Shown: positions 10,539-64,000 of the stretch, piece after piece | How positions within the stretch are numbered: the first letter of the stretch is position 1 | How the letters are laid out: each line of letters begins with the position of its first letter | Source: Chloroflexota bacterium | GTDB taxonomy: Bacteria; Chloroflexota; Dehalococcoidia; DSTF01; RBG-16-68-14 | Length of the DNA: 64,000 nt | Assembly (NCBI GenBank): GCA_029262675.1 | Contig: JAJCYW010000009.1 | Location: forward strand, 47,198-111,197 | Direction: 5' to 3' | The notes under the pieces: generated by a model | What the model saw: the letters and a program-made list of their open reading frames with translations, nothing else | What the model was told of the DNA's origin: nothing | The model's database searches: none | Made by a program: the position numbers and the translations under genes

Positions 10539-10541
10539 GGT

Positions 10542-10931
10542 CTATGCCTTGGGGTGGGCTACCCATTTTCGTCCGACCCCCTCCATCCTGAGTCGCTGAT
10601 AGATCATGGTGCGGATACCATCAGAGCTCGTGAGGAGCTCTCCATCATGGTTATACAGGCGATACCGGATGTTCTCGTCAGCGTCTTCCGGAACAGATAG
10701 CAGCAACTCGCCGCCGGTGGAGTGAACGTCAACCCCTTCGGGGTAGTGCTCGAGACCTTCGCGGTCTGAGACAAGGTAGCCTCCAGAGTCGTACAAATGG
10801 AACGCCACCAAGTGGAGGCCATCAGCATCGCACGCAAGTTGCAAGATGTTTTCTGCTGAGCTGGCGTCCATGAACGTTGTGGATGTACCTGGTTGCCGAT
10901 CACCGAACCTCATTGCGCCCTCCATTTGCAC
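10542..10931 (-). CDS. hypothetical protein
   Basis: ORF sits immediately upstream of the helicase on the same strand. No recognisable motifs. Confidence 0.3.
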   Translation of the reverse strand: MQMEGAMRFGDRQPGTSTTFMDASSAENILQLACDADGLHLVAFHLYDSGGYLVSDREGLEHYPEGVDVHSTGGELLLSVPEDADENIRYRLYNHDGELLTSSDGIRTMIYQRLRMEGVGRKWVAHPKA

Positions 10932-11166
10932 TGAAACTAACAGACGTTAGCAGGAGTGCCGTCTCGACAGCGGTGTACGCTAGGTCCGAGAGGCGAGGGG
11001 TGTCGCTGGGCGCATCCAGCGCTTCCAGCGTCAAGAACTTGCGACACGACCAGTGTCGATCCGGGTCGATGCCTCGCTGTGCCGCGCGAGTAGCCGCGCG
11101 ACCTCGGGTTGGAGTGAGGGCAGCAACGGTACGTTGGACGCGTTGCTGCCCCTCACTCGGGTTCTC

Positions 11167-26095: not shown

Positions 26096-26149
26096 GAGAA
26101 TGAGCATGCCATCGAACGTCAGTAGCACTATGGAGGACAGGTACTAGTC

Positions 26150-27172: not shown

Positions 27173-27287
27173 CGAGATCGGACGGCCAGCGGTCGTTCAA
27201 CTGCAAACAGGCGCGAGAGAACGGAATGGCACGGGATGCCCGTGGAATCAGGCCAAGGACGGCCGGACTGATGAACGGAGGAGAGAC

Positions 27288-40533: not shown

Positions 40534-41393
40534 CAGAAACCCGAACGTTCACGGACATGGAACAGATCATCACGACCAGTTCCCGTCTGATGGACGGCGA
40601 CAAGCTGTATTTCACTGCCATCGGAGGGCCGCCTCTGGTTGCGGTCCTGCTCGCGAAGCGCCTGCGCGCCCCGGAGCTGGCCTACATCGTGGAAGACGGG
40701 ACCATCGCCCCGCAGGTCTCGCTGCCAGCGCCACCGTTTCTGATCGCGGCCAGCGGCGCCAGCTATCGCGCCGCGGCGTGGGCGGACATGAACACCGTCA
40801 GCTTCCATGCCGGCCTGGGCTACATCGACTACGGCGTCCTGGCGGCGGTGCAGGTGGACGAGTATGGCAACTTCAACTCGACCTTCGTCGGTCCGGCGTA
40901 CGAAAGGCCGGCGCGCCGCTTCGGCGGCCCCGGCGGCGCGAACGAGATCGCCTCGCTCTGTTGGCGGACGATCTTGATGACGCGCCAGCAGGGACGCAAG
41001 TTCGTCAAGAAGCTGGATTTCATGTCGTCGCCGGGCTTTCTGGACGGCAGCGCCGGCGCCCGCGAACGGGCCGGCCTCCCTGCGGATACCGGGCCCTGGC
41101 GCGTCGTGACGGAGATGGCCGTGTTCGACTTCGACGAGGAGACGCGGCGTATTCGTCTGAAGGCACTGGCACCTTGGGCGACGGTCGACGACGTGATCGC
41201 CGAGATGGAGTTTGAGCCCATGATCGGTCCTTCGCTGGAGAGCATCGAGGTACCCAGCGAGGAGGAGCTATCCGTGCTTCGGGCAGAAGTTGACACGACG
41301 GGCCGGACCGTGCGAGGCTGCTGGATCACGGTCGAACTCGATGGCGAGAATGCACGCCTCGTGGAGCAGGAGACCTCAGCCGAGGGGGCATAG
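40530..41393 (+). CDS. CoA-transferase family I, subunit B (GctB/IpdB-like)
   Basis: ATGA overlap with subunit A. ...YFTAIGGPPLVAVLLAKRL... and ...GGPGGANEIA..., the subunit-B pattern. Confidence 0.65.
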   Translation: MTETRTFTDMEQIITTSSRLMDGDKLYFTAIGGPPLVAVLLAKRLRAPELAYIVEDGTIAPQVSLPAPPFLIAASGASYRAAAWADMNTVSFHAGLGYIDYGVLAAVQVDEYGNFNSTFVGPAYERPARRFGGPGGANEIASLCWRTILMTRQQGRKFVKKLDFMSSPGFLDGSAGARERAGLPADTGPWRVVTEMAVFDFDEETRRIRLKALAPWATVDDVIAEMEFEPMIGPSLESIEVPSEEELSVLRAEVDTTGRTVRGCWITVELDGENARLVEQETSAEGA

Positions 41394-41463
41394 CACAGTG
41401 GCAGAACAGCCAGTCTATCAGGCCCGCGCAGCGCACGGCCCCGGCCGTCGCCGGGCAAGTCGC

Positions 41464-48970: not shown

Positions 48971-50557
48971 TTGAGCGATGCCACATTCGACGCAGTCATT
49001 ATCGGGGCAGGCCACAACGGGCTTTCGTTAGGTACCTACCTATCGAAGTGTGGCTGGGATGTCGCGATATTCGAGAAGCGCACTGAAGAGGGCGGCGGCC
49101 TCTGTACGGAAGAGCTGACGCGCCCCGGGTTTCTTCACAACGTTCACTGCAACTACCACACGCTGGTCGGCGTCTGTCCCGTCTATGACGATTTGGACCT
49201 GTACGATCATGGCCTGAAGTACGTCCAGCCGGAAGTGCAGATGGGGAGCGTCTTCCGTGACGGCACGGCGCTGACCGTACATACGGACATCGACAAGACG
49301 TGCGCGTCGTTTGCGCGTTTCTCGGAGAAGGACGCTGAGACGTTCCGCCGGCTGCACGATGAGGTGAAGGGCTACCTGGACCTGATCCTGAGTACGCTGA
49401 TGTACTCGCCGCCCATCCCGTTGCTCGATATTACGAAGGCGCTTGTCGTCTGGAAAATCACCGACAAGGCGGAGTTCCTGAGCGTCCATCTGCGCAACAT
49501 GACGATCAACGAGTTCCTGGACGAGCACTTCGAGAGCGACAAGATCAAGGCGATGCTTGCTTTCCAGGCAGCCATTTCCGGCTACGCGACGGACCTAAGA
49601 GGGCTCGCCGTGTCGTTCCCGCTCTTGGTTGGCAAAATGGATAATTGGCACGTCTGCGTCGGCGGTTCTCATCAACTCGCGCACTCGCTCTGGGAGGCGT
49701 TCGCGCATGCGGGCGGGAGCGTCTTCCTGAACACGCCGGTTGCAGGCATCGTGACGGACAACGGCAAGGCGACCGGCGTTCGCCTCTACGACGGCAGCGA
49801 GGTGAAGGCCCGGCACGCCGTCATCAGCACGATCGACGTGGAGCAGACGTTCCTGAAGATGTTGCCGCGCGAGAAGCTGGACCCGGAGCTCGTGAAGCAT
49901 GTGGAAGACGTCTCGCACATCGATTGGTCATATTACAGCGTTCACCTGGCCATGAGCGAAGCTCCTCAGTACGAGGCGGCATCATTCGACCCGGACATCC
50001 AGAATGCTTGGGTACTCAATGCCGGCTATGAGTCGCTGGATGACCTGAGTCAGGACTGGAAGACCGTCCGCGCGGGCAAGCTGGCCGATCCCAAGCCGAA
50101 CTGCGCCGTGAACTCGCTGTTCGATCCGACGGACTCGCCCGATGGCTCGTTTACGGGCCTGATGCGCCAGTTCGCCCCGATCGAGATCGGGAGCGGCGGT
50201 ATGGAGGCGTGGGACGAGATGGCTGGCCCATACGGAGAGCGCCTCATCGACGCGTGGACGTCGTACGCTCCGAACGTGAGAGGCGCGACGATCGAATGGC
50301 AGTCATACACGCCTCTGGACATCTCGCGCCGGATGGTGAACATGGTCCGCGGCGACTGGATGGGCGGCGTCATCGCGCTCGACAACCTGCTGACGGAGCG
50401 GCCAACTCCGGAGCTATCGCAGTACAAGACGCCGTTCGAGGGCCTGTACATGGCTGGGGCCACGCAGCATCCGCACGGATTCATCACGTTCGCGCCGGGC
50501 TACAACGCGCTGCAGGTAATCGCAGAAGATCACGGATTGGAGCGCTGGTGGCAATGA
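48971..50557 (+). CDS. FAD/NAD(P)-dependent oxidoreductase of the phytoene-desaturase (CrtI-like) family, copy 1
   Basis: TTG start with a GAGGGGG RBS. FDAVIIGAGHNGLSLGTYLSKCG (Rossmann GxGxxG) and ...EKRTEEGGGLCTEEL. About 528 aa. Confidence 0.7.
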   Translation: MSDATFDAVIIGAGHNGLSLGTYLSKCGWDVAIFEKRTEEGGGLCTEELTRPGFLHNVHCNYHTLVGVCPVYDDLDLYDHGLKYVQPEVQMGSVFRDGTALTVHTDIDKTCASFARFSEKDAETFRRLHDEVKGYLDLILSTLMYSPPIPLLDITKALVVWKITDKAEFLSVHLRNMTINEFLDEHFESDKIKAMLAFQAAISGYATDLRGLAVSFPLLVGKMDNWHVCVGGSHQLAHSLWEAFAHAGGSVFLNTPVAGIVTDNGKATGVRLYDGSEVKARHAVISTIDVEQTFLKMLPREKLDPELVKHVEDVSHIDWSYYSVHLAMSEAPQYEAASFDPDIQNAWVLNAGYESLDDLSQDWKTVRAGKLADPKPNCAVNSLFDPTDSPDGSFTGLMRQFAPIEIGSGGMEAWDEMAGPYGERLIDAWTSYAPNVRGATIEWQSYTPLDISRRMVNMVRGDWMGGVIALDNLLTERPTPELSQYKTPFEGLYMAGATQHPHGFITFAPGYNALQVIAEDHGLERWWQ

Positions 50558-51081
50558 CGGGCTCTGTTTCGACAAACGGGACCGTGCCGATTCGGGCGGT
50601 GGCAGGCGACGAAGCCAGTGGGCTGGCCAACATCATTACGCAGTACCTGGAACAGCTCTTGGGCGACTCGGCGGAGAAGCGCGCCGCGGCGTCGTCGCTG
50701 CGGGGCCGTCTTGGCATGAACGCGCGCGAGAGCGACGTGGCGGTGACGATCGTGTTCGCGGACGGCGCCATCGAAATCGAAGAAGGCCTGCAGGAGCCGG
50801 ACGCCGTGATCGGCGGCGAATTGGAATTCCTAATGCACATGATGGCGGGCCGGGCTAACCCGGCGTGGGAGATGCTGAACCGGAAGATGACGATCCGGCC
50901 AGGACGGCGGCCGCTCTTCGCATACCAGGCCTACAGCCTGATGCGGCTGCCGGGCGTACATGTGTGGAACGGGGTGCCGAGGCCGCCCACAGGCGTTCTG
51001 GTGGGCGCGGCGGCCGCGCTGGTGATTGGACTATCGATCATGTACGCCCGACGCAGGGCACCAGGAGGTGACGATGCCTGA
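50554..51081 (+). CDS. SCP2 (sterol-carrier-protein-2)-like lipid-binding protein with C-terminal TM helix
   Basis: ATGA overlap with the upstream gene. ...VAVTIVFADGAIEIEEG...DAVIGGELEFLMHMMAGRANPAWEMLNRKMTIRPGR is SCP2-like. C-terminal GVLVGAAAALVIGLSIMYA helix. Confidence 0.5.
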   Translation: MTGSVSTNGTVPIRAVAGDEASGLANIITQYLEQLLGDSAEKRAAASSLRGRLGMNARESDVAVTIVFADGAIEIEEGLQEPDAVIGGELEFLMHMMAGRANPAWEMLNRKMTIRPGRRPLFAYQAYSLMRLPGVHVWNGVPRPPTGVLVGAAAALVIGLSIMYARRRAPGGDDA

Positions 51082-52687
51082 GGCAACGTATGATGCAGTG
51101 ATCATCGGCGCGGGCCACAACGGACTCACGCTGGCGGCCTACCTCGCGAGGTCGGGGTTGTCCGTTGGGATCTTCGAGCGCAGGCACGAGGACGGCGGTG
51201 GTGTAAACACGGAGGAGGCGACCGTTCCCGGCTTCCACCACAACCTTCATGCTCAGTACATGGAGTTCATCGACTACATGCCGGTCTACCACGACTTCGA
51301 GCTGGAGAAGTGGGGCTCTCGGATGATCAAACCAGACACCCAACTGGGTATCACGTTCGCTGACGGGAGGCCGCCGCTCATTATCTACCGGCCCGATCCT
51401 GAGCTGGACAAGAAGACCCACAAGAGCATCTCCGAGCACTCCAAGCACGACGCGGACACGTGGCTGGAACTGAAGACGAAGATGATGGAAAGAGAGTTCC
51501 AGATAGCAGCCACGCTCTACAGCCCGGCGGAGGCCGAGGACGACGCCGAGGCGTCGGCTGCCATGATGAGCGCGGGCCTTAGCCTCTGGCAGGACCTGGG
51601 CCTAACGGCGAACGATATCGGCAAGGCGCCGAAGGTGCTGATCGATCGCTTCTTCGAATCGACGGAGATGCGGGCGTTGCTCTACCGCCAGTGCATCGAG
51701 TGGGGCGCAAACGTACACGCCGGCAACGGGTACGGCTTCCTGGTCTCCGTCCTCTGGCTCAGCGCGATCCACTATATGTCCGCCGGCGGCACGCATACGT
51801 TGGCGCACGCCATGGCGAACGCTGCGTTGAAGGCGGGCGCGTGCATGCGTTTCAGCAGCCCCGTGGTCAAGATCCTCTTTGAAGGCGGGCGCGCCTCGGG
51901 CATCCAGCTCAAGGACGGAACGAAGGTCAATGCGACGAAACTCGTCGCTTCGAACGTCGATCCCAGGCAGACGTTCGTGGACTTCATCGGCGAAGAGAAC
52001 CTGGAGCCGTTCCGCAAGGAGCGGTTGGCCGGCTGGCACTTCGGTCCGGAGCACGTCCTCGGCACGCCGTCGTTCGCGCTTCACGAAGCGCCGAACTACA
52101 AGTCCGCGAAATGGAACGAGGACATCAACCGCTGCTTCTACACCGTCGTTGGGTTCGAGACAGCGGAGCAAGTGTCCAACTACATCCTGCAGGCATACGG
52201 CGGCCAGATACCGGACCGGCCGGGCGCCGGCACGTGGGTCAACTCGCTGTGGGATCCCACGCAGGCGCCGGCGGGCAAGCACGTGATGAACGGCTGGTTC
52301 TTCTTCCCCAAGGCCTCATGCCTCAGCGAAGCAGAGTGGGATGAGGTACGTGCTACGTACAATGACAAGTTCCTGAAGCTGTGGGAGGAGTACGCTCCGA
52401 ACATGACGCGCAAGAACGTCATCGCGGACCGGCTGTATACGGCCTTCGACATCGAGAAGAAGATGTCGATGCCGGAGGGTGATTTCTCGCAGGGCCGCGC
52501 CGGCGGTATCGGCGTTGGTGTGGCTCGTGAGTACCAGTACCGGACGGAGTTTCCGGGCCTATACCTCTGCGGTCCGTCCGCCGGAGGTGGGGGCGTCAGT
52601 TCCGCCCCGGGCTACGGCTCGTTCAAAGTCATCTGCAAAGACCTCGACCTGCCAAAGATCTGGCAACAGGGGGGTCGGAACTACTAA
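51074..52687 (+). CDS. FAD/NAD(P)-dependent oxidoreductase of the phytoene-desaturase (CrtI-like) family, copy 2
   Basis: CCAGGAGG RBS. YDAVIIGAGHNGLTLAAYLARSG. Colinear paralog of 48971..50557. Confidence 0.7.
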   Translation: MPEATYDAVIIGAGHNGLTLAAYLARSGLSVGIFERRHEDGGGVNTEEATVPGFHHNLHAQYMEFIDYMPVYHDFELEKWGSRMIKPDTQLGITFADGRPPLIIYRPDPELDKKTHKSISEHSKHDADTWLELKTKMMEREFQIAATLYSPAEAEDDAEASAAMMSAGLSLWQDLGLTANDIGKAPKVLIDRFFESTEMRALLYRQCIEWGANVHAGNGYGFLVSVLWLSAIHYMSAGGTHTLAHAMANAALKAGACMRFSSPVVKILFEGGRASGIQLKDGTKVNATKLVASNVDPRQTFVDFIGEENLEPFRKERLAGWHFGPEHVLGTPSFALHEAPNYKSAKWNEDINRCFYTVVGFETAEQVSNYILQAYGGQIPDRPGAGTWVNSLWDPTQAPAGKHVMNGWFFFPKASCLSEAEWDEVRATYNDKFLKLWEEYAPNMTRKNVIADRLYTAFDIEKKMSMPEGDFSQGRAGGIGVGVAREYQYRTEFPGLYLCGPSAGGGGVSSAPGYGSFKVICKDLDLPKIWQQGGRNY

Positions 52688-52697
52688 GGAGTGCGCC

Positions 52698-53168
52698 ATG
52701 GCCGAGATCTACACCACCGCCTGGTACGACAGCATGAAGGATCTCCTCAACAAGAGCGATGAGGTCACGAAGAACGCACCGCAGGGTGTCTGGCGCATCC
52801 TGGCGGAGATTCGCGGCGATGGCACATCACCCTACATCGGCGGCGATGATGTCAAACGCTTCTCGATAGTGCTCGACGATGGCAAATGCGCGAGCTACCA
52901 GGAGCTGACAGAGGCGCCGCCGCGGAAGGACTTCGAATTCATCCTGGAGATGCCCGCCGGCCTCTTCGAGCGTATCGTCGCCAACCAGGCAGATCCGCTT
53001 GAGGCCGGGCTAAAGGGTGACGTGAAGATCGTCGGCGACATGCGGGTGCTGATCCAGAACGCGGAGCTAGTGAACGTCCTCTCTGAGATCTACCAGCGCG
53101 AGATCGAAACGGAGTGGCCTAACGGTACCCCTCCGTACGAGGCAGCGACTGCTGGAGGTGCGGCATGA
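52698..53168 (+). CDS. SCP2-domain protein
   Basis: AAGGAG RBS. ...FSIVLDDGKCASYQELTE...FEFILEMPAGLFERIVANQADPLEAGLKGDVKIVGDMRVLIQNAELVNVL is an SCP2 fold signature. Confidence 0.55.
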   Translation: MAEIYTTAWYDSMKDLLNKSDEVTKNAPQGVWRILAEIRGDGTSPYIGGDDVKRFSIVLDDGKCASYQELTEAPPRKDFEFILEMPAGLFERIVANQADPLEAGLKGDVKIVGDMRVLIQNAELVNVLSEIYQREIETEWPNGTPPYEAATAGGAA

Positions 53169-55945
53169 CCGAAGCAGGCCTATTGCTACACGCCCTCGCC
53201 GAAAAGAAGGGAGGCGGCAGCGAATCCTATGGCTCCTGGGAGGATCTGTATCGCGGGAAATGGACGTGGGACCGCGTCGTCAAAGGTACGTGCAACCGGG
53301 CTGACTGCATCGCAGCTTGCTCGTTGGACCTGTTCGTTAAGGACGGCATCGTGTGGCGAGAAGAGCAGAACGCCATCTACGACCAGACCAACGAGGCGGT
53401 GCCAGACTTCAACCCACGTGGCTGCCAGAAGGGCATCTGCTACAGCGACCTGATGTACGATGCGTCTCGCATCAAGTACCCGCTGCGAAGAGTTGGCGAG
53501 CGTGGCTCCGGAAAGTGGGAGCGCATCTCATGGGATGAGGCGCTAACGGAGATCTCCGACAAGGTCCTTGATGTCTGCAAGGAGGATGGCCCGGAGAGCA
53601 TCATCTACGACTTCGGCACAACGAACATCGACTTCGGACCTGGAACGCCCGCCGAGCAGCAACTGACCCGCCTGATCGGCACGACGTCGCTCGATGAGTG
53701 GGCCGGCGTGGGCGACCTTCCCATGGGCGCCATCCAGACCTGGGGCCTCTTCAACGCTGATGGGACCTCCGACGATTGGTTCAACGCCGATACGATCTTG
53801 GTCTGGCTGGGCAATCCCGTCTACACGCGGGTGCCGGACGTGCACTTTATGTTCGAGGCGCGCTACAAGGGCGCCGAAGTGGTAACGATCGCGCCTGATT
53901 ACAACGCCACCGTGGTGCATTCCGACCTCTGGGTGAACCCGCGCGTCGGAACGGACGCCGCTCTGGCGCTTGCGATGTGCAACGTGATCGTGGAGGAGGG
54001 GCTGCAGAAGGATCGCTACGTGCAGGAACAGACCGACCTGCCGTTCCTGGTACGCGAAGACGCCGGCCGCTTCCTCCGCCAATCCGACATCGCCAAGGAT
54101 GGCAAGGATGACGTTTTTTACGTCTGGGATCTAGCCACCAAATCGCTACAAGAAGCGCCAGGGACGATGGGACAGCCGGATGCGTCGCTCGACCTGGGTG
54201 ACCTCGACCCCGCGATGGAGGGCGATTTCGAGGTAGAGCTGCTGGACGGCAGGAAGGTGACCGTACGACCCGCCTTCCTGGCGCTCAAGAAACGTTTGGA
54301 CGAATACACGCCGGAGCGCGCCGCAGAGATCACAGGCGTCGCCGCCAGCACGATCCGGCGTTTGGCCCGACGGGTAGCTGAGAGTCCCGCCACGCTGATT
54401 TTCTGCTCGTGGGGGGCCTGCAAGCACTACCACATGGACCTCGTGCAGCGATCCATCATCCTGCTGCTCGCGCTCACCGGCAACACGGGTAAGCGCGGCG
54501 CCGGTATGCGCATCGGCGCTTGGTGGAACATGTCGCTCAGCTACGACAAGGCTGGCGTCGGCGCACTTGCGGCGGCCGGCGCCCCAGCAGAGCGGCCCAA
54601 GGTCCGCGACCTTGAGAACTTGATGAAGACGCTGATGAAGGCAAACTCGTCGATCAGCCCGACGATGCCGTTCCTCTATAAGCACGACAAGGGCTACGCG
54701 AAGCTGGTCGACACGCCCGGCTATCACGACCCCGATCTGAAGCGCCCCATTAGCGAGTACATGCAGGAGGCGTTCGATAAGGACTGGATGCCTGTCTATC
54801 CCAGGGACGGCAAGTCGCCGCGGGTCTTCCTCTACACGGGTATGAACCCGCTGCGCCGCTGGCCGGCCCCCGATGCCATTCGCGAGAATCTGTGGGCGAA
54901 TTTCGAGTTGATCGTGACATGGGATTTCCGCATGTCCAGCTCCGGCATGTACTCGGACATCATCCTGCCCGCGGCAGGATGGCACGAGAAGTCCGGCGTC
55001 AAGTTCACCCAGAGCTATGTGCCGTACATCTGTGTTGGTGAGCAGGCCGTGGAGCCGCTCTACGAGTCAAAGAACGAGTTCGACATCATGGCCAAGCTGG
55101 CGGCTACGCTGGAGCGGCGGGCCAAAGAGCGGGAAGAAGCCCCGTACAAGGATGTGTTCGGTAACGAGCACGATCCAACAGACATCGCCCGCCTCTGGAG
55201 CTTGGACGGTGAGTTCGGCGAGGGAGACGCGGAAAAGGCGCTGGACGTCCAATTCGAGCTCTCAGATCCGGTTGGAGATGCTACGTGGGCGGAGGCGGCT
55301 GAGAAGGGGGCGGTGCGCGTGACGTCGACGGGAGGCTATGGGCCGATCACCGCCATCACGAATGAAGTTGAGGAAGGTGAGACGCTCTACCCGTTCGCGT
55401 GGTTTGTCAGGGACAAGGAGTCTTGGCCCACGCTCACCGGACGCCAGCAGTTCTACATCGACCATCCGTGGTTCCTAGAGGCCGGCGAAGAGTTGCCCAC
55501 GCACAAGGAGGCCCCTCCCGCTGGCGGCGATTACCCGCTGCGGATGACAGGTGGACATACGCGTTGGAGCATCCACGCTATCTGGAGGAGCAATCGCACG
55601 CTCCTTCGACTCCAACGCGGCGAGCCCGTGATGTACATCAGCACGCAGGACGCGGCGGCGCGCGGCCTGGATGACCATGACCTGGCCTTGGTCCACAACG
55701 ATGTAGGCGGGTTCAAGGTGAGAGTGAAGCTGGCGCCCAGTGTTCAGCCGGGCCAGGTGGTCATGTATCACGCCTGGGAGCCGTACCAGTTCGAGCAGTG
55801 GTCGGGCCAGCAGGCTGTTAACCCATCGCCGCTGAAGCCCCTCCACCTAGTGGGGGACTACGTCCAGCTTTCGTATCGGTTTGCCCTGGCCCAACCCAGC
55901 AACATTTCTCGGGCGATGACGGTCGAACTGACAAAGGTGGAGTGA
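53165..55945 (+). CDS. molybdopterin (bis-MGD) oxidoreductase alpha subunit, type II DMSO-reductase family (NarG/EbdA/C25DH-like), paralog 1; no Tat signal
   Basis: N-terminal ...WTWDRVVKGTCNRADCIAACSLDLFVKDGIVWREEQ...NPRGCQKGICYSDLMY..RIKYPLRRVGERGSGKWERISWDEAL parallels the NarG FS0-cluster/N-domain. No RR motif. 926 aa. ATGA overlap with the SCP2 gene. Confidence 0.8.
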   Translation: MTEAGLLLHALAEKKGGGSESYGSWEDLYRGKWTWDRVVKGTCNRADCIAACSLDLFVKDGIVWREEQNAIYDQTNEAVPDFNPRGCQKGICYSDLMYDASRIKYPLRRVGERGSGKWERISWDEALTEISDKVLDVCKEDGPESIIYDFGTTNIDFGPGTPAEQQLTRLIGTTSLDEWAGVGDLPMGAIQTWGLFNADGTSDDWFNADTILVWLGNPVYTRVPDVHFMFEARYKGAEVVTIAPDYNATVVHSDLWVNPRVGTDAALALAMCNVIVEEGLQKDRYVQEQTDLPFLVREDAGRFLRQSDIAKDGKDDVFYVWDLATKSLQEAPGTMGQPDASLDLGDLDPAMEGDFEVELLDGRKVTVRPAFLALKKRLDEYTPERAAEITGVAASTIRRLARRVAESPATLIFCSWGACKHYHMDLVQRSIILLLALTGNTGKRGAGMRIGAWWNMSLSYDKAGVGALAAAGAPAERPKVRDLENLMKTLMKANSSISPTMPFLYKHDKGYAKLVDTPGYHDPDLKRPISEYMQEAFDKDWMPVYPRDGKSPRVFLYTGMNPLRRWPAPDAIRENLWANFELIVTWDFRMSSSGMYSDIILPAAGWHEKSGVKFTQSYVPYICVGEQAVEPLYESKNEFDIMAKLAATLERRAKEREEAPYKDVFGNEHDPTDIARLWSLDGEFGEGDAEKALDVQFELSDPVGDATWAEAAEKGAVRVTSTGGYGPITAITNEVEEGETLYPFAWFVRDKESWPTLTGRQQFYIDHPWFLEAGEELPTHKEAPPAGGDYPLRMTGGHTRWSIHAIWRSNRTLLRLQRGEPVMYISTQDAAARGLDDHDLALVHNDVGGFKVRVKLAPSVQPGQVVMYHAWEPYQFEQWSGQQAVNPSPLKPLHLVGDYVQLSYRFALAQPSNISRAMTVELTKVE

Positions 55946-55961
55946 GAAGCGAGGTGCAGTC

Positions 55962-56612
55962 ATGCGCGTAGGTCGAGTTGATACAAGAGATGAGGAGCTG
56001 CTGAGCCCTGAGTCGACGGCCTGGCAGGAAGCCGCCGTCAATGAGGTTGTGTTGTCGCCGACACCCCTCGAGTTGCAGCCTACCGATTACATTCGCGTTT
56101 CCCGAAACGGCCGTCCGTACGGCGCGGTTTCGAGCATGAGGGTGAGCGCCCTGCACAACGGCGACAGTGTGTTCTTCCACTTGGTTTGGCAGGATGACTC
56201 TGAAGATCGGGCGATCAAGGACATCAACCAGTTCGTGGATGGCGCCGCCGTGATGTTCCCGATAGTCGAGGATGCGCCGCTCATTGGCATGGGAATCCAA
56301 GGCAAGCCAGTGAACGTATGGATGTGGCGCGCCGACTGGGAACGGCCGAAGAACGTCGCTGCGGAAGGGATGGGGACGACTCAGCGCCGGGACGACCCGG
56401 CACTTTCGTCCGCGGTGCGTCATGCCGATGGGAATTGGGATCTGATCGTTGGCAGATCGCTCGAAGAAAGAGACGCCCCTCCGGGGACGATCGCACTGGC
56501 GCCCGGAGCGGCGTCGAAGATCGGATTCGCAGTCTGGCAGGGTTCCGAACAGGAGCGAGCCGGTCTGAAGGCATTCTCTCCCGCCTGGCAAGATCTAGAG
56601 CTTGATGCGTAG
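55962..56612 (+). CDS. EbdC/DdhC-like heme-b gamma subunit (EB_dh domain), without signal peptide
   Basis: GAGGTG RBS. ...MRVSALHNGDSVFFHLVWQDDSEDRAIKDINQFVDGAAVMFP...GKPVNVWMWRADWE matches the ethylbenzene-dehydrogenase gamma-subunit fold pattern. N-terminus is hydrophilic. Confidence 0.6.
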   Translation: MRVGRVDTRDEELLSPESTAWQEAAVNEVVLSPTPLELQPTDYIRVSRNGRPYGAVSSMRVSALHNGDSVFFHLVWQDDSEDRAIKDINQFVDGAAVMFPIVEDAPLIGMGIQGKPVNVWMWRADWERPKNVAAEGMGTTQRRDDPALSSAVRHADGNWDLIVGRSLEERDAPPGTIALAPGAASKIGFAVWQGSEQERAGLKAFSPAWQDLELDA

Positions 56613-56630
56613 CGGAAAGTAGGGCTCGCC

Positions 56631-57683
56631 ATGACTGAACGACAACTCGCGTTCGTCTTCGACCTCAACAAGTGCTTGGGCTGTCAGACGTGCACTATTT
56701 CGTGCAAGACGCTTTGGACGGACCAGCCGGGCATGGAATACATGTGGTGGAACATCGTCAATACGATGCCCGGCCGGGGCACGCCGCGCGATCGGGACCA
56801 AATGGGCGGCGGTTTCGATGCTGAAGGGCGCGCGCAAGCGGGCGTGCTGCCGAGCGCAAAAGACTTCGGCGAGGCCTGGGACTTCAACTACGATGAGGTC
56901 TTTTACGAAGGGAAGGGCCAATCGGCACACCTCCACCCGCGCAGTCCAAGCGCGAACGGCAAGGACGAAGCACCAGAGTGGGGGCCGAACTGGGATGAGG
57001 ATCAGGGCGCGGGCGATTACCCGAACAGCTACTATTTCTACCTACCGACGATTTGCATGCACTGCACGGACCCGGCCTGCCTGGCCGCGTGCCCGCGTCA
57101 GGCGATCTCCAAGCGGGAGGAGGACGGCATCGTCCTCATCGACGAAGACCGCTGCGACGGATACCGATTCTGCATGGAGGCCTGTCCGTACAAGCGCATC
57201 TACTTCAACCCGGACCGTTTCATCTCACAGAAGTGTGTCATGTGCTTCGCGAGGCTGGAACAGGGCGTCGCGCCCGCCTGCGTTCGCCAGTGTCCCGGGC
57301 GCGTTCGCCACTTCGGCTATCTCGACGATGAGGAGAGCGACATCTTTAAGCTCGTCAAGACGTGGAAGGTGGCGATCCCGTTGCACCCTGAGTTCGGCAC
57401 ACAGCCGAACGTGTACTATGTGCCGCCGCTCGCCCCGCCGCGCTTCGACGAGAACGGTGAGATCGATGAAGAGAACCCTCGCATCCCCATGGACTACCTG
57501 CGCTCGCTCTTCGGCCCGGCGGTGGATCAGTCGCTCGCGACGCTCAAGCTGGAGATGGAGAAGACGCGGCAGGGAGAGAAGTCAGAGCTGACGGATATTC
57601 TCATCGCTTACAAGTGGCAGAACATGTTCATTCCGTTTGTGGAGGACCCGGGTGAATTGAGCCGCCCGGCGCCTAAGTCATGA
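56631..57683 (+). CDS. 4Fe-4S/3Fe-4S beta subunit (NarH/EbdB-like)
   Basis: Four Cys clusters: CLGCQTCTISC, CMHCTDPACLAACP, CDGYRFCMEACP, CVMCFARLEQGVAPACVRQCP. About 350 aa. Confidence 0.85.
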   Translation: MTERQLAFVFDLNKCLGCQTCTISCKTLWTDQPGMEYMWWNIVNTMPGRGTPRDRDQMGGGFDAEGRAQAGVLPSAKDFGEAWDFNYDEVFYEGKGQSAHLHPRSPSANGKDEAPEWGPNWDEDQGAGDYPNSYYFYLPTICMHCTDPACLAACPRQAISKREEDGIVLIDEDRCDGYRFCMEACPYKRIYFNPDRFISQKCVMCFARLEQGVAPACVRQCPGRVRHFGYLDDEESDIFKLVKTWKVAIPLHPEFGTQPNVYYVPPLAPPRFDENGEIDEENPRIPMDYLRSLFGPAVDQSLATLKLEMEKTRQGEKSELTDILIAYKWQNMFIPFVEDPGELSRPAPKS

Positions 57684-58357
57684 TGCAAATCGAATCGCTC
57701 GGCACGCAGGAAGGAATCGTCGCGGCCGCCCACAGCCGCCTCTATCGGCTGCTTGCGGACGGCATCTTGTTCCCGGATCGTGACGCTTTCGATGAGATCA
57801 AGGCGGGGCGCGTTCGCGACTACGTTGTGGAGACGTGCCGGGAGTTGCCGTACGCTCTGGAGCCAGCGTTCGATGGGCTGGTGGCTTCGGGTGAGTACGT
57901 GGACTTTCAGTCCGAGTTCCTCAGGGTATTCGAAGTCGGCCAAGGCATGCCGCCATGCCCGCTCTACAGCGGGATCTATAGAGGCGGGAGAAAGGCCGTG
58001 ATGGAAGAGTTGGCGCGCTTCTATTCCTACTTCGGCCTGTCGATCGAACACGGCTCAGGGGAGCTGCCAGATCACTTGGCGACCGAGCTGGAATTCATGC
58101 ACTTCCTCGCATTCAAGGAGTTGACCGCCCTTCACCAGGAGAAGGACCCGATGCCGTACCGGCGTGCCCAGGCAGATTTTCTGGAGCGTCAGCTTGTATC
58201 GTGGGTGCCTTCGCTGGAGAAGAGACTACAGGGAGCGGCACCGCCTCCGTTCTATACAGCGCTTGTTTGGCTGACCAACGCGTTGGCTCGCGAGCACCTT
58301 GCGTTGCTCAATGGATCAGTCGATCGGAATGCCACGATTTCATTGGATGCAGTGTGA
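57680..58357 (+). CDS. TorD/NarJ/EbdD-family assembly chaperone (delta)
   Basis: ATGA overlap with beta. The all-helical ~225 aa protein in the position and size of NarJ/EbdD. Identification is largely by context. Confidence 0.55.
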
Positions 58358-59481
58358 TGACCGCAGCCATCTGCGTTGTTGGGCGAAAGAACAGCGGCAA
58401 GACGACCCTCATCGAACGTCTCTTGCCAGAACTGCGGGCTCGCGGCCGAAAGGTGGCGACGCTCAAGCACGATGCGCACGACTTCGAGATCGACCTACCG
58501 GGGAAGGACACGTGGCGTCACCGCCAGGCGGGGAGCACCACCACTGTGATTTCGTCCTCTTCGAAGGTTGCCATGGTGCGATCGACCGATCGCGAGACGC
58601 CGTTGGATGAGTTGCTGCGGCTAGTAGACGACTCATGCGATCTGGTGCTCATCGAAGGGCTGCGGCGCAGCGCGTGTCCGAAGATCCTTGTTCATCGACC
58701 GGAAGTCGGTGGCCCGCCAGGCGTTCTTGGTGAGGTCTGGGCCGTCGTCGGAGACGAGACGCCGGAGACGAATCGAAGCGCCACGCGGATCGCGGCGAAC
58801 GACGTCAAGGCGCTTGCCGATCTTATCGAGGAGCGGCTCCTGGGTGGAAGCGTCCAGGCTCCTGCCTGGAACCTGCCGGCGTTGTTGGCCGAGGCAAGCC
58901 GCCATCATGGCCATATCTGCCCCGGACAGGTGCTGGGAGTGCGGATGGCGATCTTGGGATGCGAGCGGCTGGGGATCTACGAACCGAAGTCATCGAAGCG
59001 CCTCATTACATTTGTCGAGACGGATCGATGCGGGACGGACGCGGTGCAGACCGTGACGGGCTGCACGCTCGGCAAGCGGACGCTCAAGTTCGTTGACTAT
59101 GGCAAGCTTGCGGCGACGTTCCTCGATTCGGAGACAGGCCGCGCTGTGCGGATCGTCGCCAGGGAGAGCGCGCGCGACGCCGCGCTACAGTTTGCGCCGG
59201 ACGAGATAGACGCGCATGCTGCGCAGTTGAGAGCGTACAAGGCGCTGCCGGAGGACGTCCTGTTCAGCGTGCAGGACGTACGAGCTACGTTGGCTGAGAC
59301 GGAGCTACCTGGCCGGCCTCACGGTCGCGTCGTCTGCGCAGAGTGCGACGAGGGAGTCAACAACGGTCGCGAGTTGGCAGTCGCTGGAAGAACGTTGTGC
59401 CGCGCGTGCGCCGGCGTGCCGTACTACCAGGAAGCTGAAGACATCGTAACAACACAGAAGCAGAAATCGGAAGCGCCGTAA
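58357..59481 (+). CDS. MobB (molybdopterin-guanine dinucleotide biosynthesis, P-loop) fused to an FmdE/FwdE-like Zn-binding domain
   Basis: N-terminus [22 protein letters not shown] (MobB Walker A). C-terminal half ...[16 protein letters not shown]... plus CAECDE...CRAC (FmdE-like with Zn-ribbon). The ATG overlaps the upstream stop. Confidence 0.65.
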
Positions 59482-59498
59482 GCGAATGGAGGGACACC

Positions 59499-62330
59499 AT
59501 GGCACGGAAGAAAGCGTCAGCGAAGAAGGGAAATCGAACGGCAGATAGCTATCGCGATCGCTGGCGCTGGGACTCGGTGACCTGGGGCAGCCACTGCGTC
59601 GACTGCTATCCGAGCAACTGCCCGCACCGCGTCTTCGTGCGCGACGGCAAGATTGTGCGCGAAGAACAGTCGGGGACCTTCCCGGTCATCGAGAAGGGCG
59701 TGCCGGACATGAACCCGGCCGGCTGTCAGAAGGGCGCCATGTGGAGCCAGATGCACGACAGCGAGGATCGCATCATCTACCCGATGAAGCGGGTAGGCGA
59801 GCGAGGTTCCGGTGAATGGGAGCGCGTGTCTTGGGACGACGCGCTCACGGACATAGCCGACAAGATCATCGACGCTATCCAAGAGTACGGGTCGGAGTCC
59901 CTCGTCCGCATCGGCGAGCCGGCTGAAGGCGGCACGCAGGTGCTGGTCTGCGCCAGCATGCTGATCAACATGATTGGCGGCATCACGACTGACGTTCAGG
60001 CGGAGATCAACGACTTCAGTCCCGGTCTCTACACTACCTTCGGGAAGTTCGACCCGGCCGCGAGCGTGGACGACTGGTTCCACACGGAGCTCGTGCTGAT
60101 CTGGCACTGCAACCCGATCTACACGAACATCCCCTGGTACCACTACGTGGCGGAAGCGCGTTACAACGGTGGCGAAGTCATGCTCTTCGCGCCGGACTAC
60201 AGCCCTTCCGCGCTTCATACGGACCTGTTCGCGTCCGTGCGCCCCGGCACCGACGCGGCGCTTGCGCTCGGGATGTGCCAGGTGCTGGTCGAAGAGGGGC
60301 TCTATCACGATGACTTCGTGAAGGACCAGACGGACCTGTCTTTGCTGGTGCGAACGGACAACCAGCATTTCCTGCGCGCCAGCGATGTCGACGGCGGTCG
60401 GGACGACCAGTTCTACTGGTACGACACGGTGACGAAGAGCGTCGTCGAAGCGCCGCGAGGCACGCTCGCGCTTGGCGACGTCGATCCCGCTCTCGCCGGA
60501 GAGTTCGAGGCGACGCTCGCGGACGGCTCGAAGGTCACGGTAACGCCGGTCTTCGCGCTGCTTCGCGAAATGCTGAACCGCGACTATACGCCGGAGAAGG
60601 CCTCGGAGATCTGTGGCGTGCATCCGGACGTGATGCGGCGGGTGGCGCGCACGGCCGCGCGCAAGCGGACCCGCCTGCTCATGGGCTGGAACTCCGGCAA
60701 GTACTACCACGGCGACCTGATGGAACGGACGATGGCTCTCTTCCTCGGCCTGACCGGTAACTGGGGCCGGAAGGGGACCGGGGCCCGTTCATGGGCAGTA
60801 GGTTGGTATGAAGGTTTGTTCGCGCCGCTGGCCAAGGAAAAGCCAGGCCGCCAGGCCGCGCGCGACATGAAGAACATGATGGACCAACTGCTGGCGGCGG
60901 CTAAAGAGGCAGATCCCACCATGACCGATGAGATCGCGGTGGTGGAGGGGGAGTACGAGGCCGCTCGCATGGGTGGCATGGTCCCGGCCGTGTTCTTCTG
61001 GTACTACCACTGCGGGTTCCGGGAGCGCTGGAACAAGCCGGAGTGGAACGACCCCAGCATGAAGCGTACCTTCGACGAGTATGTCGAAGAGGGTATCGAA
61101 CGCGGCTGGTGGGAGGGGTTCCGCACGCCGGACGAAAAGACGCCGCCACAGGTGATCTTCGAGATTGGGAGCAACGTCCTGCGGCGCACACGTGGCGGCC
61201 AGGACATCCTTCTGGAGAACCTGTGGCCCGATCTGAAGCTCATCCTCACCATCGACTGGCGAGTGAGCACCACGGGGCTCATGTCGGACTACATCCTGCC
61301 GGCCGCCCATCACTACGAAAAGCTGAACTTCTGCTACCAGACGCCGCACGTCATGAATCTGACGTTCTCTGACAGGGCGGTAGACCCGCCGGGTGAGGCG
61401 AAGTCCGAGTGGCAGATCGTACTCGCACTGGCGAAGAAGCTCGGGGAACGGGGGAAGGCGCGCAACTTTGTTGAGTACCAGCATCGAGGCATGCCGATTC
61501 GCCTCGATACTCTCTACGATGCCCTGAGCAAGAACGGTGCTTACGACGATGACGAACGCTTGGTAGACGAGATGGTGAAGGACAGCGCCACCTTCGGCGT
61601 GATCCCCAAGGGGACCAATCTCAAGACGATGCGCGAGAAGGGATTCGTGCGCTTCACCGACTGGGGCCTCAGTTCCATGACCCTCGCCCAGGCTTCTGAC
61701 CTGAAGCCGGACGAGGCGCACGCGCCGTTCCGCAGACACACGGAGAAGAAGGAACCGTTCCCGACGTTGACGCGGCGCGCGCAGTTCTACATCGACCACG
61801 ACTGGTTCCTGGAGGCCGGCGAGGAGCTGCCGGTGCACAAGGAAACACCGAAGCAGGGCGGCAACTATCCACTCGTGCTCACGTCGGGCCACCCGCGGCA
61901 CAGCATCCACTCGATGAACATGACGAACAAGGTGATCCTGGCGACGCACCGTGGCCACCCCTCGATGTTCATCAGCCCAGAGGACGCGAAGGCGCGCGGC
62001 ATCAAGAACAACGAAACTGTGCGTATGCACAACGACGTGTCATCGGTCGAAATCGATACAAAGGTGTCCACGCTGGTTCGCCCGGGCCAGGTGATCGTTT
62101 ACAACGGCTGGGAGCCGTATCAGTTCGAGCAATGGAAGGGTACGGAGAACGTGGAGCCTGGGATGGTGAAGTGGCTTCACCTGGCGGGTGGCTATGGGCA
62201 TTTGCAGTATCGCAGCATCCACTGGCAGCCGGTGCCAATCGACCGGGCGATCCACGTCGACGTCGAGAAGATTAAGTCGAAGCGAAAGGCGAAGGCCGGC
62301 GCGAAACGAGTAGCCGCCAAGAGGAAGTAG
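59499..62330 (+). CDS. molybdopterin oxidoreductase alpha subunit, type II DMSO-reductase family, paralog 2; no Tat signal; Lys-rich termini
   Basis: ...WRWDSVTWGSHCVDCYPSNCPHRVFVRDGKIVREEQ...NPAGCQKGAMWSQMHD..RIIYPMKRVGERGSGEWERVSWDDAL. Colinear with 53165..55945 to the C-terminal ...GWEPYQFEQW.... 943 aa. Confidence 0.8.
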   Translation: MARKKASAKKGNRTADSYRDRWRWDSVTWGSHCVDCYPSNCPHRVFVRDGKIVREEQSGTFPVIEKGVPDMNPAGCQKGAMWSQMHDSEDRIIYPMKRVGERGSGEWERVSWDDALTDIADKIIDAIQEYGSESLVRIGEPAEGGTQVLVCASMLINMIGGITTDVQAEINDFSPGLYTTFGKFDPAASVDDWFHTELVLIWHCNPIYTNIPWYHYVAEARYNGGEVMLFAPDYSPSALHTDLFASVRPGTDAALALGMCQVLVEEGLYHDDFVKDQTDLSLLVRTDNQHFLRASDVDGGRDDQFYWYDTVTKSVVEAPRGTLALGDVDPALAGEFEATLADGSKVTVTPVFALLREMLNRDYTPEKASEICGVHPDVMRRVARTAARKRTRLLMGWNSGKYYHGDLMERTMALFLGLTGNWGRKGTGARSWAVGWYEGLFAPLAKEKPGRQAARDMKNMMDQLLAAAKEADPTMTDEIAVVEGEYEAARMGGMVPAVFFWYYHCGFRERWNKPEWNDPSMKRTFDEYVEEGIERGWWEGFRTPDEKTPPQVIFEIGSNVLRRTRGGQDILLENLWPDLKLILTIDWRVSTTGLMSDYILPAAHHYEKLNFCYQTPHVMNLTFSDRAVDPPGEAKSEWQIVLALAKKLGERGKARNFVEYQHRGMPIRLDTLYDALSKNGAYDDDERLVDEMVKDSATFGVIPKGTNLKTMREKGFVRFTDWGLSSMTLAQASDLKPDEAHAPFRRHTEKKEPFPTLTRRAQFYIDHDWFLEAGEELPVHKETPKQGGNYPLVLTSGHPRHSIHSMNMTNKVILATHRGHPSMFISPEDAKARGIKNNETVRMHNDVSSVEIDTKVSTLVRPGQVIVYNGWEPYQFEQWKGTENVEPGMVKWLHLAGGYGHLQYRSIHWQPVPIDRAIHVDVEKIKSKRKAKAGAKRVAAKRK

Positions 62331-62523
62331 GCAGCCGCGACGGGCAAGAGAATGGAAGAGAAACTACGCGGCCGGCGACGCTGGATGGTCGAGTCGCAGA
62401 TAGCACGCGAACGTACTGAATCGCCGGGTCGTGGGAACGGCGGCCCGCCGATCACCCGCCGGCGCTAGAGGTCGAACCGACGCAGCGTCCGCTCGGCGAG
62501 ACCTCAGCGCTCAAGGAGGCGCG

Positions 62524-64000
62524 ATGTCACGTGGACCGGAGCGGTCGCAGGGAATGACACCTAGTGATGCGTCGCTCCCGCTGCTGAACGAAGTCGTCAC
62601 CCGAAGAAGGTTCCTCCAGGGAGTCTCAGCGGGTGCTGCCGCGCTGTATCTGACACAGCTAGGTTGCAGCGGCGGCGCCGACGGCATTCGCCGGGTGGTC
62701 GAGCAGAATCAAGCGTTCGGGAACTGGACAGACGTCTTTCGGCAGAAGTGGTCGTGGGACAAGGTGACGTGGGGCACGCACCTGATCGATTGCTATCCCG
62801 GGAGCTGCCTCTTCCGTGTCTACACTAAGGACGGCGTCGTCTGGCGGGAAGAGCAAGCCGGCCGCTATCCGGAGATAGAGGCGGGTGTGCCGGACATGAA
62901 CCCTCGCGGGTGTCAGAAGGGCTCCTGTTTCAGCGACGTCATGTATGGCGCCGAACGCCTGCGCTACCCTCTGCGGCGCGTGGGCGAGCGGGGGAGCGGC
63001 AAATGGGAGCGTATTTCTTGGGACGAAGCGCTCACGGAAGTGGCGGACGGCATCCTGGACGGGATCGACGAGGTCGGGCCGGAGTCGATCATCTACGAGA
63101 CGGGGCCGGGCAACGGCGGCATCGTAAACGGGCCGCTGCCGGGCTGGCGCCTGAGCCGCCTGATCGGCGCGACCGTGCTCGACACCAACGGCCTGGTAGG
63201 CGACTTCAACGTCGGCCTATTTGAGACGTTCGGGAAGTTCCACTTCGTCTCCTCTGTAGATGACTGGTTCCACTCCGACCTGATCCTGACCTGGCACATG
63301 AACCCGGTCTACACGCGCATTCCTAGCGCCCACTTCATCTATGAGGCGCGCTACCACGGCACCCGCGTCGTCAACATCGCGCCGGACTACAACGCCTCAA
63401 GCGTGCACGCCGACATGTGGGTGCCTGTCGAGCCCGGGACGGACGCCGCGCTGGCGCTGGCGCTCTGCCGAATCATCATCGACGAGGGCTGGATGAATCG
63501 GGACTTCGTCGTGGAACAGACGGACCTGCCACTCCTCGTGCGGCTGGACACGAACCAGTTCCTGCGAGAAACCGATCTCCGCATCGATGACGACGGCGCG
63601 CGTGACGACCAGTTCTATGTCTGGGACGAAGCTACCGGCGGGCTGTCGCCCGCGCCACGGGACACGCTCCGGCTCGAATCGACGCCCGCGCTCGAAGGGC
63701 GGTTCGCTGTTGAACTGGGCGATGGGACGGAGGTCGAGGTGACGCCCGCGTTCGTGCTGCTACGGGCGCGCCTGCAGGAGTACACGCCTGAGCACGCCTC
63801 CTCAGTTTCGGGTGTCAAGCCCTCCATGATACGCAAGCTCGCGCAGATGGTGGGTGAAGCAAAGCGAGTGCATATCCTGCAGGGCTTCAACACCAACAAG
63901 TACTACCACGGCGATCTAATCGAACGGGCACAGGCCCTGCTGCTGGCCTTGACGGGTAACTTCGGCCGGAAAGGCACGGGGATGCGCGGTTTCAATACCG
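62524..64000 (+). CDS. molybdopterin oxidoreductase alpha subunit, paralog 3, WITH twin-arginine (Tat) signal; 3' end outside the window
   Basis: ATG 62524 with an AAGGAGG RBS. N-terminus MSRGPERSQGMTPSDASLPLLNEVVTRRRFLQGVSAGAAALYLTQLGCSG has the Tat motif RRRFLQG. It continues ...WSWDKVTWGTHLIDCYPGSCLFRVYTKDGVVWREEQ... colinear with paralogs 1 and 2. Open to the window end. Confidence 0.75.
   Translation, partial: MSRGPERSQGMTPSDASLPLLNEVVTRRRFLQGVSAGAAALYLTQLGCSGGADGIRRVVEQNQAFGNWTDVFRQKWSWDKVTWGTHLIDCYPGSCLFRVYTKDGVVWREEQAGRYPEIEAGVPDMNPRGCQKGSCFSDVMYGAERLRYPLRRVGERGSGKWERISWDEALTEVADGILDGIDEVGPESIIYETGPGNGGIVNGPLPGWRLSRLIGATVLDTNGLVGDFNVGLFETFGKFHFVSSVDDWFHSDLILTWHMNPVYTRIPSAHFIYEARYHGTRVVNIAPDYNASSVHADMWVPVEPGTDAALALALCRIIIDEGWMNRDFVVEQTDLPLLVRLDTNQFLRETDLRIDDDGARDDQFYVWDEATGGLSPAPRDTLRLESTPALEGRFAVELGDGTEVEVTPAFVLLRARLQEYTPEHASSVSGVKPSMIRKLAQMVGEAKRVHILQGFNTNKYYHGDLIERAQALLLALTGNFGRKGTGMRGFNT

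Follow-up and report, generated by a model that had tools for sequence, protein, structure and literature searches.

Catalytic subunits with and without a Tat signal in one ethylbenzene dehydrogenase-like gene array of a Chloroflexota bacterium

Where in the cell do three paralogous catalytic subunits work when they are encoded with a single set of partner subunits and only one of them carries an export signal? The question is raised by a gene array in a 64,000-nucleotide stretch of a Chloroflexota genome (assembly GCA_029262675.1, contig JAJCYW010000009.1, positions 47,198 to 111,197; hereafter the window, whose own numbering is used below), in which three catalytic alpha paralogs (alpha1 to alpha3) of the type II dimethyl sulfoxide (DMSO) reductase family are found with one gamma, one beta and one delta gene. 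Alpha3 has a twin-arginine translocation (Tat) signal, whereas alpha1 and alpha2, by comparison with their homologs, represent two old conserved clades that have lost it. We consider it fairly likely, judging from sequence and gene order, that the locus is a multi-paralog oxygen-independent hydroxylase system of the ethylbenzene dehydrogenase (EBDH) or steroid C25 dehydrogenase (S25DH) type, with cytoplasmic alpha1 and alpha2, an exported alpha3 and shared partner subunits. The genes concerned are as follows.

53165..55945, + strand: alpha1, catalytic subunit of the type II DMSO reductase family (926 aa) without a Tat signal
55962..56612, + strand: gamma, EbdC-type heme b subunit, 216 aa, no signal peptide (PF09459, 100.3 bits; cut-off 33.3)
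56631..57683, + strand: beta, Fe-S subunit with four clusters, 350 aa, no signal (TIGR03478, 516.7 bits; cut-off 480.7)
57680..58357, + strand: delta, NarJ/EbdD-family assembly chaperone (TIGR03482, 155.7 bits; cut-off 152.3; PF02613)
58357..59481, + strand: MobB-FmdE fusion (PF03205 MobB, 5e-41; PF02663 FmdE, 8e-35; zf-dskA_traR)
59499..62330, + strand: alpha2, second Tat-less catalytic subunit, 943 aa
62524..64000, + strand: alpha3, Tat-bearing catalytic subunit, cut by the window end
62524..62667, + strand: Tat signal peptide of alpha3 (n-region, TRRRFLQ, h-region GVSAGAAALYL, conserved QLGC)

Signal peptides of the alpha and gamma subunits

Profile searches match all three alphas to TIGR03479 (E values from 1e-170 to 1e-286); among solved structures, EbdA (2IVF_A) and PcrA come closest to them. 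None reaches the cut-off of 2000 of the EbdA equivalog model NF042978 (alpha1, 631.8; alpha2, 806.9; partial alpha3, 439.9), and the alphas are therefore EBDH-like rather than EBDH; similarity to the NarG model TIGR01580 is distant, with 320 bits or less. PF00384 and PF01568 (Molybdopterin and Molydop_binding) are present in alpha1 and alpha2, and PF00384 in the partial alpha3. The alignment to TIGR03479 begins at profile position 37 in alpha1, at position 46 in alpha2 and at position 1 (residue 27) in alpha3, and that of alpha1 to 2IVF_A (2.4e-174) begins at residue 55 of the chain.

The N terminus of alpha1 (MTEAGLLLHALAEKKGGGSESYGSWEDLYRGKWTWD) places 32 residues ahead of the conserved WxWD anchor and that of alpha2 (MARKKASAKKGNRTADSYRDRWRWD) only 21, both without an RR motif, while alpha3 (TRRRFLQGVSAGAAALYLTQLGC) has 75 residues there and the RR motif TRRRFL. 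Stretches free of charged residues and His reach at most 5 residues in alpha1 and 3 in alpha2 but 23 in alpha3, which also matches TIGR01409 (TAT_signal_seq) with 18.8 bits against a cut-off of 16.7 and keeps its Tat signal in the orthologs of three related loci (L007, L008 and L009). Residue runs, motif and profile start positions thus bear out the original prediction, made from the letters of the window, that alpha1 and alpha2 have hydrophilic N termini and that the Tat signal is found on alpha3 alone. Alpha1 opens with 12 residues of moderate hydrophobicity (mean Kyte-Doolittle value 1.22), but this stretch is short, contains a His, is not preceded by a basic n-region and is not hydrophobic in the orthologs (-0.56 to 1.08). 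The absence of signals on alpha1 and alpha2 is near certain.

The alpha3 signal ends in a conserved ..LYLTQLGC(S/R)GG (window 62650-62670, residues ~43-48; also in L007, L008 and L009), and the Tat-bearing relatives of alpha1 likewise end in ..LANLQFAC... The QLGC segment resembles a lipobox, but its Gln at position -3 falls outside the canonical pattern; such a signal end may mean that a monoderm host anchors the exported enzyme through a lipid.

Another question is what the gamma subunit tells about location. Its sequence has neither a signal peptide nor a hydrophobic start, as had been noticed, and this lack had been taken as unusual on the premise that an EbdC-type gamma carries a Sec signal. 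The premise is wrong: EbdC of Aromatoleum itself (2IVF chain C, 214 aa) starts KAKRVPGGKELLLDLDAPIW without any hydrophobic stretch, and the window gamma follows it collinearly (8e-37), its residues 2-214 aligning with residues 2-212 of EbdC, residue 2 to residue 2. The NCBIfam EbdC model TIGR03477 (214 positions) is likewise aligned from position 1, at 165.6 bits, slightly below the cut-off of 169.85, and the heme ligands Met110 and Lys203 are conserved, aligning with M108 and K201 of EbdC. About 100 gamma homologs are 216 aa long and start M-x-V-x-R-V; the sole hydrophobic N terminus belongs to the homolog farthest from the window gamma, which has 283 aa. Signals are likewise absent from the 26 gamma genes of related loci, among them those beside Tat-bearing alphas. 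SerC, DdhC and ClrC carry Sec signals, which do not apply to the EBDH branch. Hence gamma was rejected as an anomaly by the comparison with 2IVF_C and with ~125 homologs: a signal-less gamma is the norm for the EBDH branch, in which beta and gamma are exported together with a Tat-bearing alpha; in EBDH itself, the trimer passes the membrane already folded and loaded with its cofactors by way of the alpha Tat signal. Since EbdC and its homologs have no signal, the signal-less gamma of the window says nothing on localization, and the tempting reading of it as evidence for a cytoplasmic location is to be corrected.

Conservation of the Tat-less clades and their gene order

Tat absence defines two large conserved clades, which makes the alpha part of the original prediction stronger than could be seen from the window. 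None of the 48 homologs of the alpha1 clade (60-90% identity) has the Tat signal, whereas below 60% identity (Binatia, Deltaproteobacteria and Nitrospirae) nearly all homologs carry S/T-R-R-x-F-L signals of 52-75 residues. In the alpha2 clade, none of the 120 best homologs, at 57-87% identity, has a Tat signal; they come from metagenome-assembled genomes (MAGs) of Chloroflexota, Binatia, deltaproteobacteria, Myxococcales and Solirubrobacterales. The closest homologs are all from Chloroflexota/Dehalococcoidia MAGs. Across 87 loci with ~105 distinct alpha genes, a regular expression applied to the N termini counts 13 Tat-bearing and ~90 Tat-less alphas, with L016 among the Tat-bearing ones although a stricter expression had scored it as Tat-less. 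Two apparent Tat matches, in L019 and in alpha1 of L007, were rejected as read-through sequence ahead of the true start. At the 50% identity level, the majority of full-length representatives are Tat-bearing, and the Tat-less ones form several separate lineages.

The N termini of the alpha1 clade share a conserved (A)GL-x-L-x-A-L-G segment (..LRRLA.. at the equivalent place in a deeper subclade), and because it lines up with the last part of the h/c-region (LxLxNLxF) in the Tat-bearing sister clade, the alpha1 signal looks truncated rather than replaced. In alpha2, the comparison of homologous N termini leaves no recognizable signal remnant.

Several other features of the Tat-less termini were observed. 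Some alpha1-clade members (P0492, P0495, P0504, P0012 and P0016) have an extra hydrophilic N-terminal stretch of ~30 aa (..GRFGSWQEVYQAM..), which resembles a duplicated conserved YRSWEDIYR segment and still contains no Tat motif. Alpha2 and its close orthologs (at least 75% identity; P0121-P0130) have a Lys/Arg-rich C-terminal tail of ~25 aa, with 8-12 Lys or Arg in the last 25 residues (window 62250-62330), and their N termini (window 59499-59540 in alpha2) are also Lys-rich; such termini are absent from more distant Tat-less homologs, and the tail might bind a membrane surface or a polyanion. Two distant full-length Tat-less alphas, P0348 and P0368 (1152 and 1130 aa), have N-terminal extensions of ~210-250 aa, which by their motifs, read by eye, appear to be a NarJ/TorD-type chaperone fused to the catalytic subunit.

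The order of the genes is also conserved. In Chloroflexi bacterium RBG_16_68_14 (L003/L007), two pairs of a flavin adenine dinucleotide (FAD) oxidoreductase and an SCP2-like gene are followed by alpha1-gamma-beta-delta-FmdE-MobA-alpha2-beta2-alpha3(Tat) and a membrane protein; gamma directly follows the Tat-less alpha1 and precedes beta, with gaps of 16-18 nt, both here and in the window, and alpha2 of L007 has its own beta2 and no gamma. The full-length alpha3 orthologs, found in L007 and L008, are 980-1002 aa long. In the closest relative, L008, a gene for a 220-aa protein (8914-9576) comes after alpha3 and then one for a membrane protein of ~490 aa (9578-11053) that is homologous to the one in L007, and neither L007 nor L008 has a beta or gamma gene downstream of alpha3. 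This membrane protein after the alpha3-type gene is polytopic, ~440-490 aa long and without a Pfam match (L007 16996-18441; L008); its gene is translationally coupled in L007, and the window ends before the corresponding position. A CN_hydrolase gene is found near the Tat-bearing alpha3-type gene in L007 and in L005 (1-975).

In all 13 loci with a Tat-bearing alpha, a Tat-less alpha precedes it on the same strand, and often one gamma-beta set separates the two; this is a pattern and not a statistic, the loci having been picked by similarity to alpha2 and being phylogenetically related. The order alpha(Tat-less)-gamma-beta-alpha(Tat) is found in a second lineage (L005, L012, L015, L016 and L030), and variants of the pairing are seen in L059, L069, L040 and L041. 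Solitary Tat-less alphas stand beside ChsH2/DUF35, thiolase, acyl-CoA (acyl-coenzyme A) dehydrogenase or electron transfer flavoprotein (ETF) genes in L001, L002 and L004. In L001 (12796-16782), an orphan alpha1 ortholog is located beside ETF alpha and beta genes and an Old Yellow Enzyme-type flavin mononucleotide/FAD oxidoreductase on the opposite strand, and these ETF neighbors could possibly hint at a cytoplasmic electron route.

Localization of the complexes and alternative explanations

How could one set of partner subunits serve three alphas? Delta, the sole chaperone of its kind in the window, and MobB-FmdE, a molybdenum-cofactor guanylylation adaptor with an FmdE/zinc-ribbon domain encoded between delta and alpha2, would mature all three alphas in the cytoplasm. 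Alpha3 would then bind beta and gamma, the folded complex being exported through Tat, while alpha1, which probably binds beta and gamma since their genes directly follow its own, would stay in the cytoplasm like NarGH; alpha2 may do the same or work with beta only. The Leu-x-Leu-x-x-Leu segment of alpha1 is a possible remnant chaperone docking site, by analogy with the NarG peptide for NarJ, and MTEAGLLLHALAEKK and the alpha3 signal are candidate delta-binding peptides. Cytoplasmic residence of the Tat-less alphas is likely, and sharing of beta and gamma between them and alpha3 seems somewhat more probable than not. The original prediction set a cytoplasmic heme b complex against mixed localization of paralogous complexes with common beta and gamma; the two are not mutually exclusive, and synteny supports both, alpha1 being packed with gamma-beta-delta and alpha3 having no beta or gamma of its own. 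The location itself is what we infer, and the argument from gamma falls away.

Several points weigh against this picture. No NarI-type anchor (PF02665) or obvious cytoplasmic electron acceptor was found among the scanned open reading frames (ORFs) of the window, and the EbdC heme has a high potential and normally feeds periplasmic cytochrome c (PMC8840923, PMC7411048). Every relative found comes from a MAG, with no cultured organism among the Tat-less homologs. The signal calls are based on motif, hydrophobicity and profile matches, and the window ends within alpha3, so that the genes downstream are known from relatives only. Furthermore, loci of Binatia, deltaproteobacteria and Dehalococcoidia commonly contain a Tat-less alpha paired with beta and no gamma, and since so many Tat-less alphas stand beside beta only, alpha2 may not use gamma.

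These gamma-free pairs are also the basis of an alternative in which the Tat-less alphas are cytoplasmic alpha-beta enzymes that pass electrons from beta to a soluble acceptor, gamma being there for alpha3 only. The separate beta2 without gamma beside alpha2 in L007 would suit it, as would the alpha1 ortholog adjoining ETF genes in L001. It is nevertheless unlikely, for gamma sits between alpha1 and beta with short gaps in the window and in L003/L007, the very place expected for a subunit of alpha1.

The main rival to a cytoplasmic location is that alpha1 and alpha2 are also exported, by piggy-back on a signal-bearing partner such as the alpha3 assembly, which would make all three alphas extracytoplasmic. 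Hitchhiking is the export route of beta and gamma in EBDH-type enzymes, and the position of a Tat-bearing alpha downstream of a Tat-less one in 13 loci would suit co-assembly. However, this explanation is weakened because Tat-less alphas stand alone or with beta only in many genomes with no Tat-bearing alpha nearby (L001, L002, L004, L021, L022, L042 and others); the EBDH crystal (2IVF) is a 1:1:1 heterotrimer, with no precedent for two alphas per export unit, and both Tat-less clades are stably signal-less over deep divergence. We regard it as improbable compared with residence of alpha1 and alpha2 in the cytoplasm.

Could alpha1 and/or alpha2 instead be degenerate paralogs that are no longer active enzymes? 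Both score slightly under the curated cut-off of TIGR03479 (952.4 and 916.2 bits against 984.75), and alpha1 lacks the hallmark His of the FS0 cluster, its motif being GTCNRADCIAAC, a C-x4-C-x3-C with Cys in place of the His of the family pattern H-x3-C-x3/4-C. The shortfall in score, however, fits the 36-45 missing N-terminal profile positions, which are those of the signal region and account for it. The Asp that serves as Mo ligand (D184 in alpha1 numbering) is invariant, in VGD, IND and VGD, respectively, and aligns with the GD of PcrA (4YDD). The FS0 cysteines are intact in all three alphas, and the His-first pattern is kept in alpha2 (SHCVDCYPSNC, H-x3-C-x4-C) and alpha3 (THLIDCYPGSC). 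With this Asp, the FS0 cysteines and the two cofactor-binding domains all preserved, decay is unlikely, and NxrA of Kuenenia (PMC8387239) provides a functional precedent for Cys as first FS0 ligand. Orthologs at 60-90% identity over many genomes also imply purifying selection, and degeneracy of either paralog is thus very unlikely. The whole Tat-less alpha1 clade (P0001-P0048) has GTCN[RQ]ADCIAAC, with Cys first, and the Tat-bearing sister clade keeps the His (GTHLRTNCIAAC); the change from His to Cys (alpha1 residues ~41-52, window 53285-53320) and the loss of the signal co-occur.

That the missing signals are artefacts of annotation or assembly (a wrong start, a frameshift or a truncated gene) is refuted by the data and has next to no probability: the ORFs are maximal, with only 14, 10 and 20 in-frame codons and no start among them before the upstream stop of alpha1, gamma and alpha2, respectively, the genes abut or overlap with gaps of 0-17 nt (gamma begins 16 nt after the alpha1 stop and alpha2 17 nt after that of MobB-FmdE), each of the three starts is preceded by a Shine-Dalgarno-like GGAGG, and comparison of ORFs, packing and orthologs found nothing in support of such an error. 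Upstream starts and frameshifts were rejected on these grounds, in agreement with the earlier impression that none of the three genes has an in-frame upstream start. The orthologs have the same starts, with identical N termini in dozens of independent assemblies, and chance or an assembly artefact therefore does not explain them.

Cytoplasmic alpha1 and alpha2 would matter for what is known of these enzymes. To our knowledge, all biochemically characterized hydrocarbon and sterol hydroxylases of this kind (EBDH, S25DH, steroid C26 dehydrogenase [S26DH] and p-cymene dehydrogenase) work in the periplasm and pass their electrons to cytochrome c. EBDH, S25DH and S26DH are described as periplasmic (PMC8840923, PMC7411048), and the characterized relatives use periplasmic cytochrome c (PMC7411048). 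No Tat-less or cytoplasmic EBDH-, S25DH- or Ahy-like enzyme is described in the full texts searched, a scope outside of which lie key subscription reviews that may hold a prior mention. A cytoplasmic form, if real, would depend on a novel high-potential electron acceptor within the cytoplasm, raising the question of what would oxidize an EbdC-type heme b located there, or beta itself. Pathway steps divided between compartments are suggested, as has already been proposed for anaerobic cholesterol degradation. The chances are about even that uncultured Chloroflexota and Binatia have water-dependent C-H hydroxylases of the EBDH/S25DH type in the cytoplasm, encoded in one operon with an exported paralog and using its Fe-S and heme b subunits; a hydrophobic substrate would in that case undergo stepwise oxidation on the two sides of the membrane. 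The large conserved set of signal-less alphas also changes how calls of 'ahyA', 'ebdA' and steroid C25 hydroxylase in metagenomes are to be read.

Related systems and neighboring genes

The closest characterized system is EbdABC(D) of Aromatoleum aromaticum (2IVF), which has the same alpha with Mo-bis-pyranopterin guanine dinucleotide and FS0, four-cluster beta, heme b gamma with Met and Lys ligands and NarJ-like delta; as in EBDH, beta (N terminus MTERQLAFVFDLNKC), gamma and delta have no signal peptide, and EbdA carries a Tat signal as alpha3 does. The window differs in that its alphas are not EbdA orthologs, three of them are found per beta/gamma set, alpha1 and alpha2 have no Tat signal, the gene order is alpha-gamma-beta-delta and the host is a member of the Chloroflexota. 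Sterolibacterium denitrificans reportedly has many alpha paralogs for a small common set of beta and gamma subunits. Its S25DH/S26DH system also shares the side-chain beta-oxidation genes in the neighborhood, and some homologs are labeled 'steroid C-25 hydroxylase alpha subunit' by the Joint Genome Institute (JGI); unlike two of the three alphas here, all S25DH/S26DH alphas carry Tat signals and are periplasmic on that basis (PMC7411048).

NarGHI with NarJ is a type II enzyme kept in the cytoplasm; its alpha, NarG, is not exported and carries what is left of a Tat peptide, to which NarJ binds (PMC10609526). The window has a NarJ-family delta, and the short N-terminal segment conserved in alpha1 may be a counterpart of that peptide. 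The Nar gamma is the membrane di-heme NarI and not a soluble EbdC-type heme b protein. Read from the sequences, the alpha feature would mean that enzymes of the hydroxylase branch have lost export as NarG has, in operons that also encode an exported paralog. AhyABC of Desulfococcus oleovorans Hxd3, a putative anaerobic alkane C2-methylene hydroxylase, is EBDH-like too, as inferred from genomes. Multiple ahyA-like copies have been reported in Chloroflexota MAGs, without treatment of localization (PMC13170169), and match the paralog arrays at these loci.

The genes described above belong to a single tightly packed array on the + strand that extends from ~49 kb to the window end, in the order of two pairs of an FAD oxidoreductase and an SCP2-like gene, alpha1, gamma, beta, delta, MobB-FmdE, alpha2 and alpha3. 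The two pairs are the following.

48971..50557, + strand: CrtI/amine-oxidase-like FAD oxidoreductase, first of two (Pfam DAO, Amino_oxidase, NAD_binding_8)
50542..51081, + strand: SCP2-like small protein, first of two (Pfam SCP2, 29.4 bits)
51026..52687, + strand: CrtO/CrtI-like FAD oxidoreductase, second of two (Pfam DAO, NAD_binding_8)
52698..53168, + strand: SCP2-like small protein, second of two (Pfam SCP2, 23.8 bits)

From the first FAD oxidoreductase on, the gene order upstream of alpha1 is kept in L003/L007; the tandem pairs as a whole (48971-53168) are conserved there and partly in L004. The start of the first SCP2-like gene is approximate, set from the 179-aa ortholog of L003 (the mechanical ORF is 50209-51081), and the match of the second oxidoreductase to the CrtO-like NCBIfam model (1.2e-43) is far under the curated cut-off. 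The second SCP2-like protein probably starts MAEIYTTAWYD (its L003 ortholog has 153 aa, MPAIYTRPWYDN), and its stop overlaps the alpha1 ATG. The tandem pairs suggest a hydrophobic isoprenoid or sterol substrate on a carrier protein. Further upstream are an Ltp/SCPx-type thiolase, two CoA-transferase subunits, an acyl-CoA dehydrogenase and a GMC oxidoreductase, a setting of lipid, sterol or isoprenoid side-chain catabolism. Taken together, the SCP2, CrtI-like, thiolase, acyl-CoA dehydrogenase and CoA-transferase neighbors suggest sterols or isoprenoid/alkyl side chains as candidate substrates. MobB-FmdE probably starts MTAAICVVG (its mechanical ORF begins at 58201), and FmdE and MobA/MobB are separate genes at the same place in L007, L004 and L005.

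Elsewhere in the window, genes of an ATP-binding cassette exporter and a sulfotransferase lie among those of three large FG-GAP repeat proteins (18739-29351), and a 1010-aa NHL-repeat protein has a cupredoxin domain (41290-44322); these repeat proteins are probably at the cell surface, with no relation to the signal question of the alphas. A DUF2804 gene lies at 12687-13805 on the - strand, and another is found near the Tat-less alpha pair of L002 (17307-18320), a possible recurrent association of DUF2804 with Tat-less alphas.

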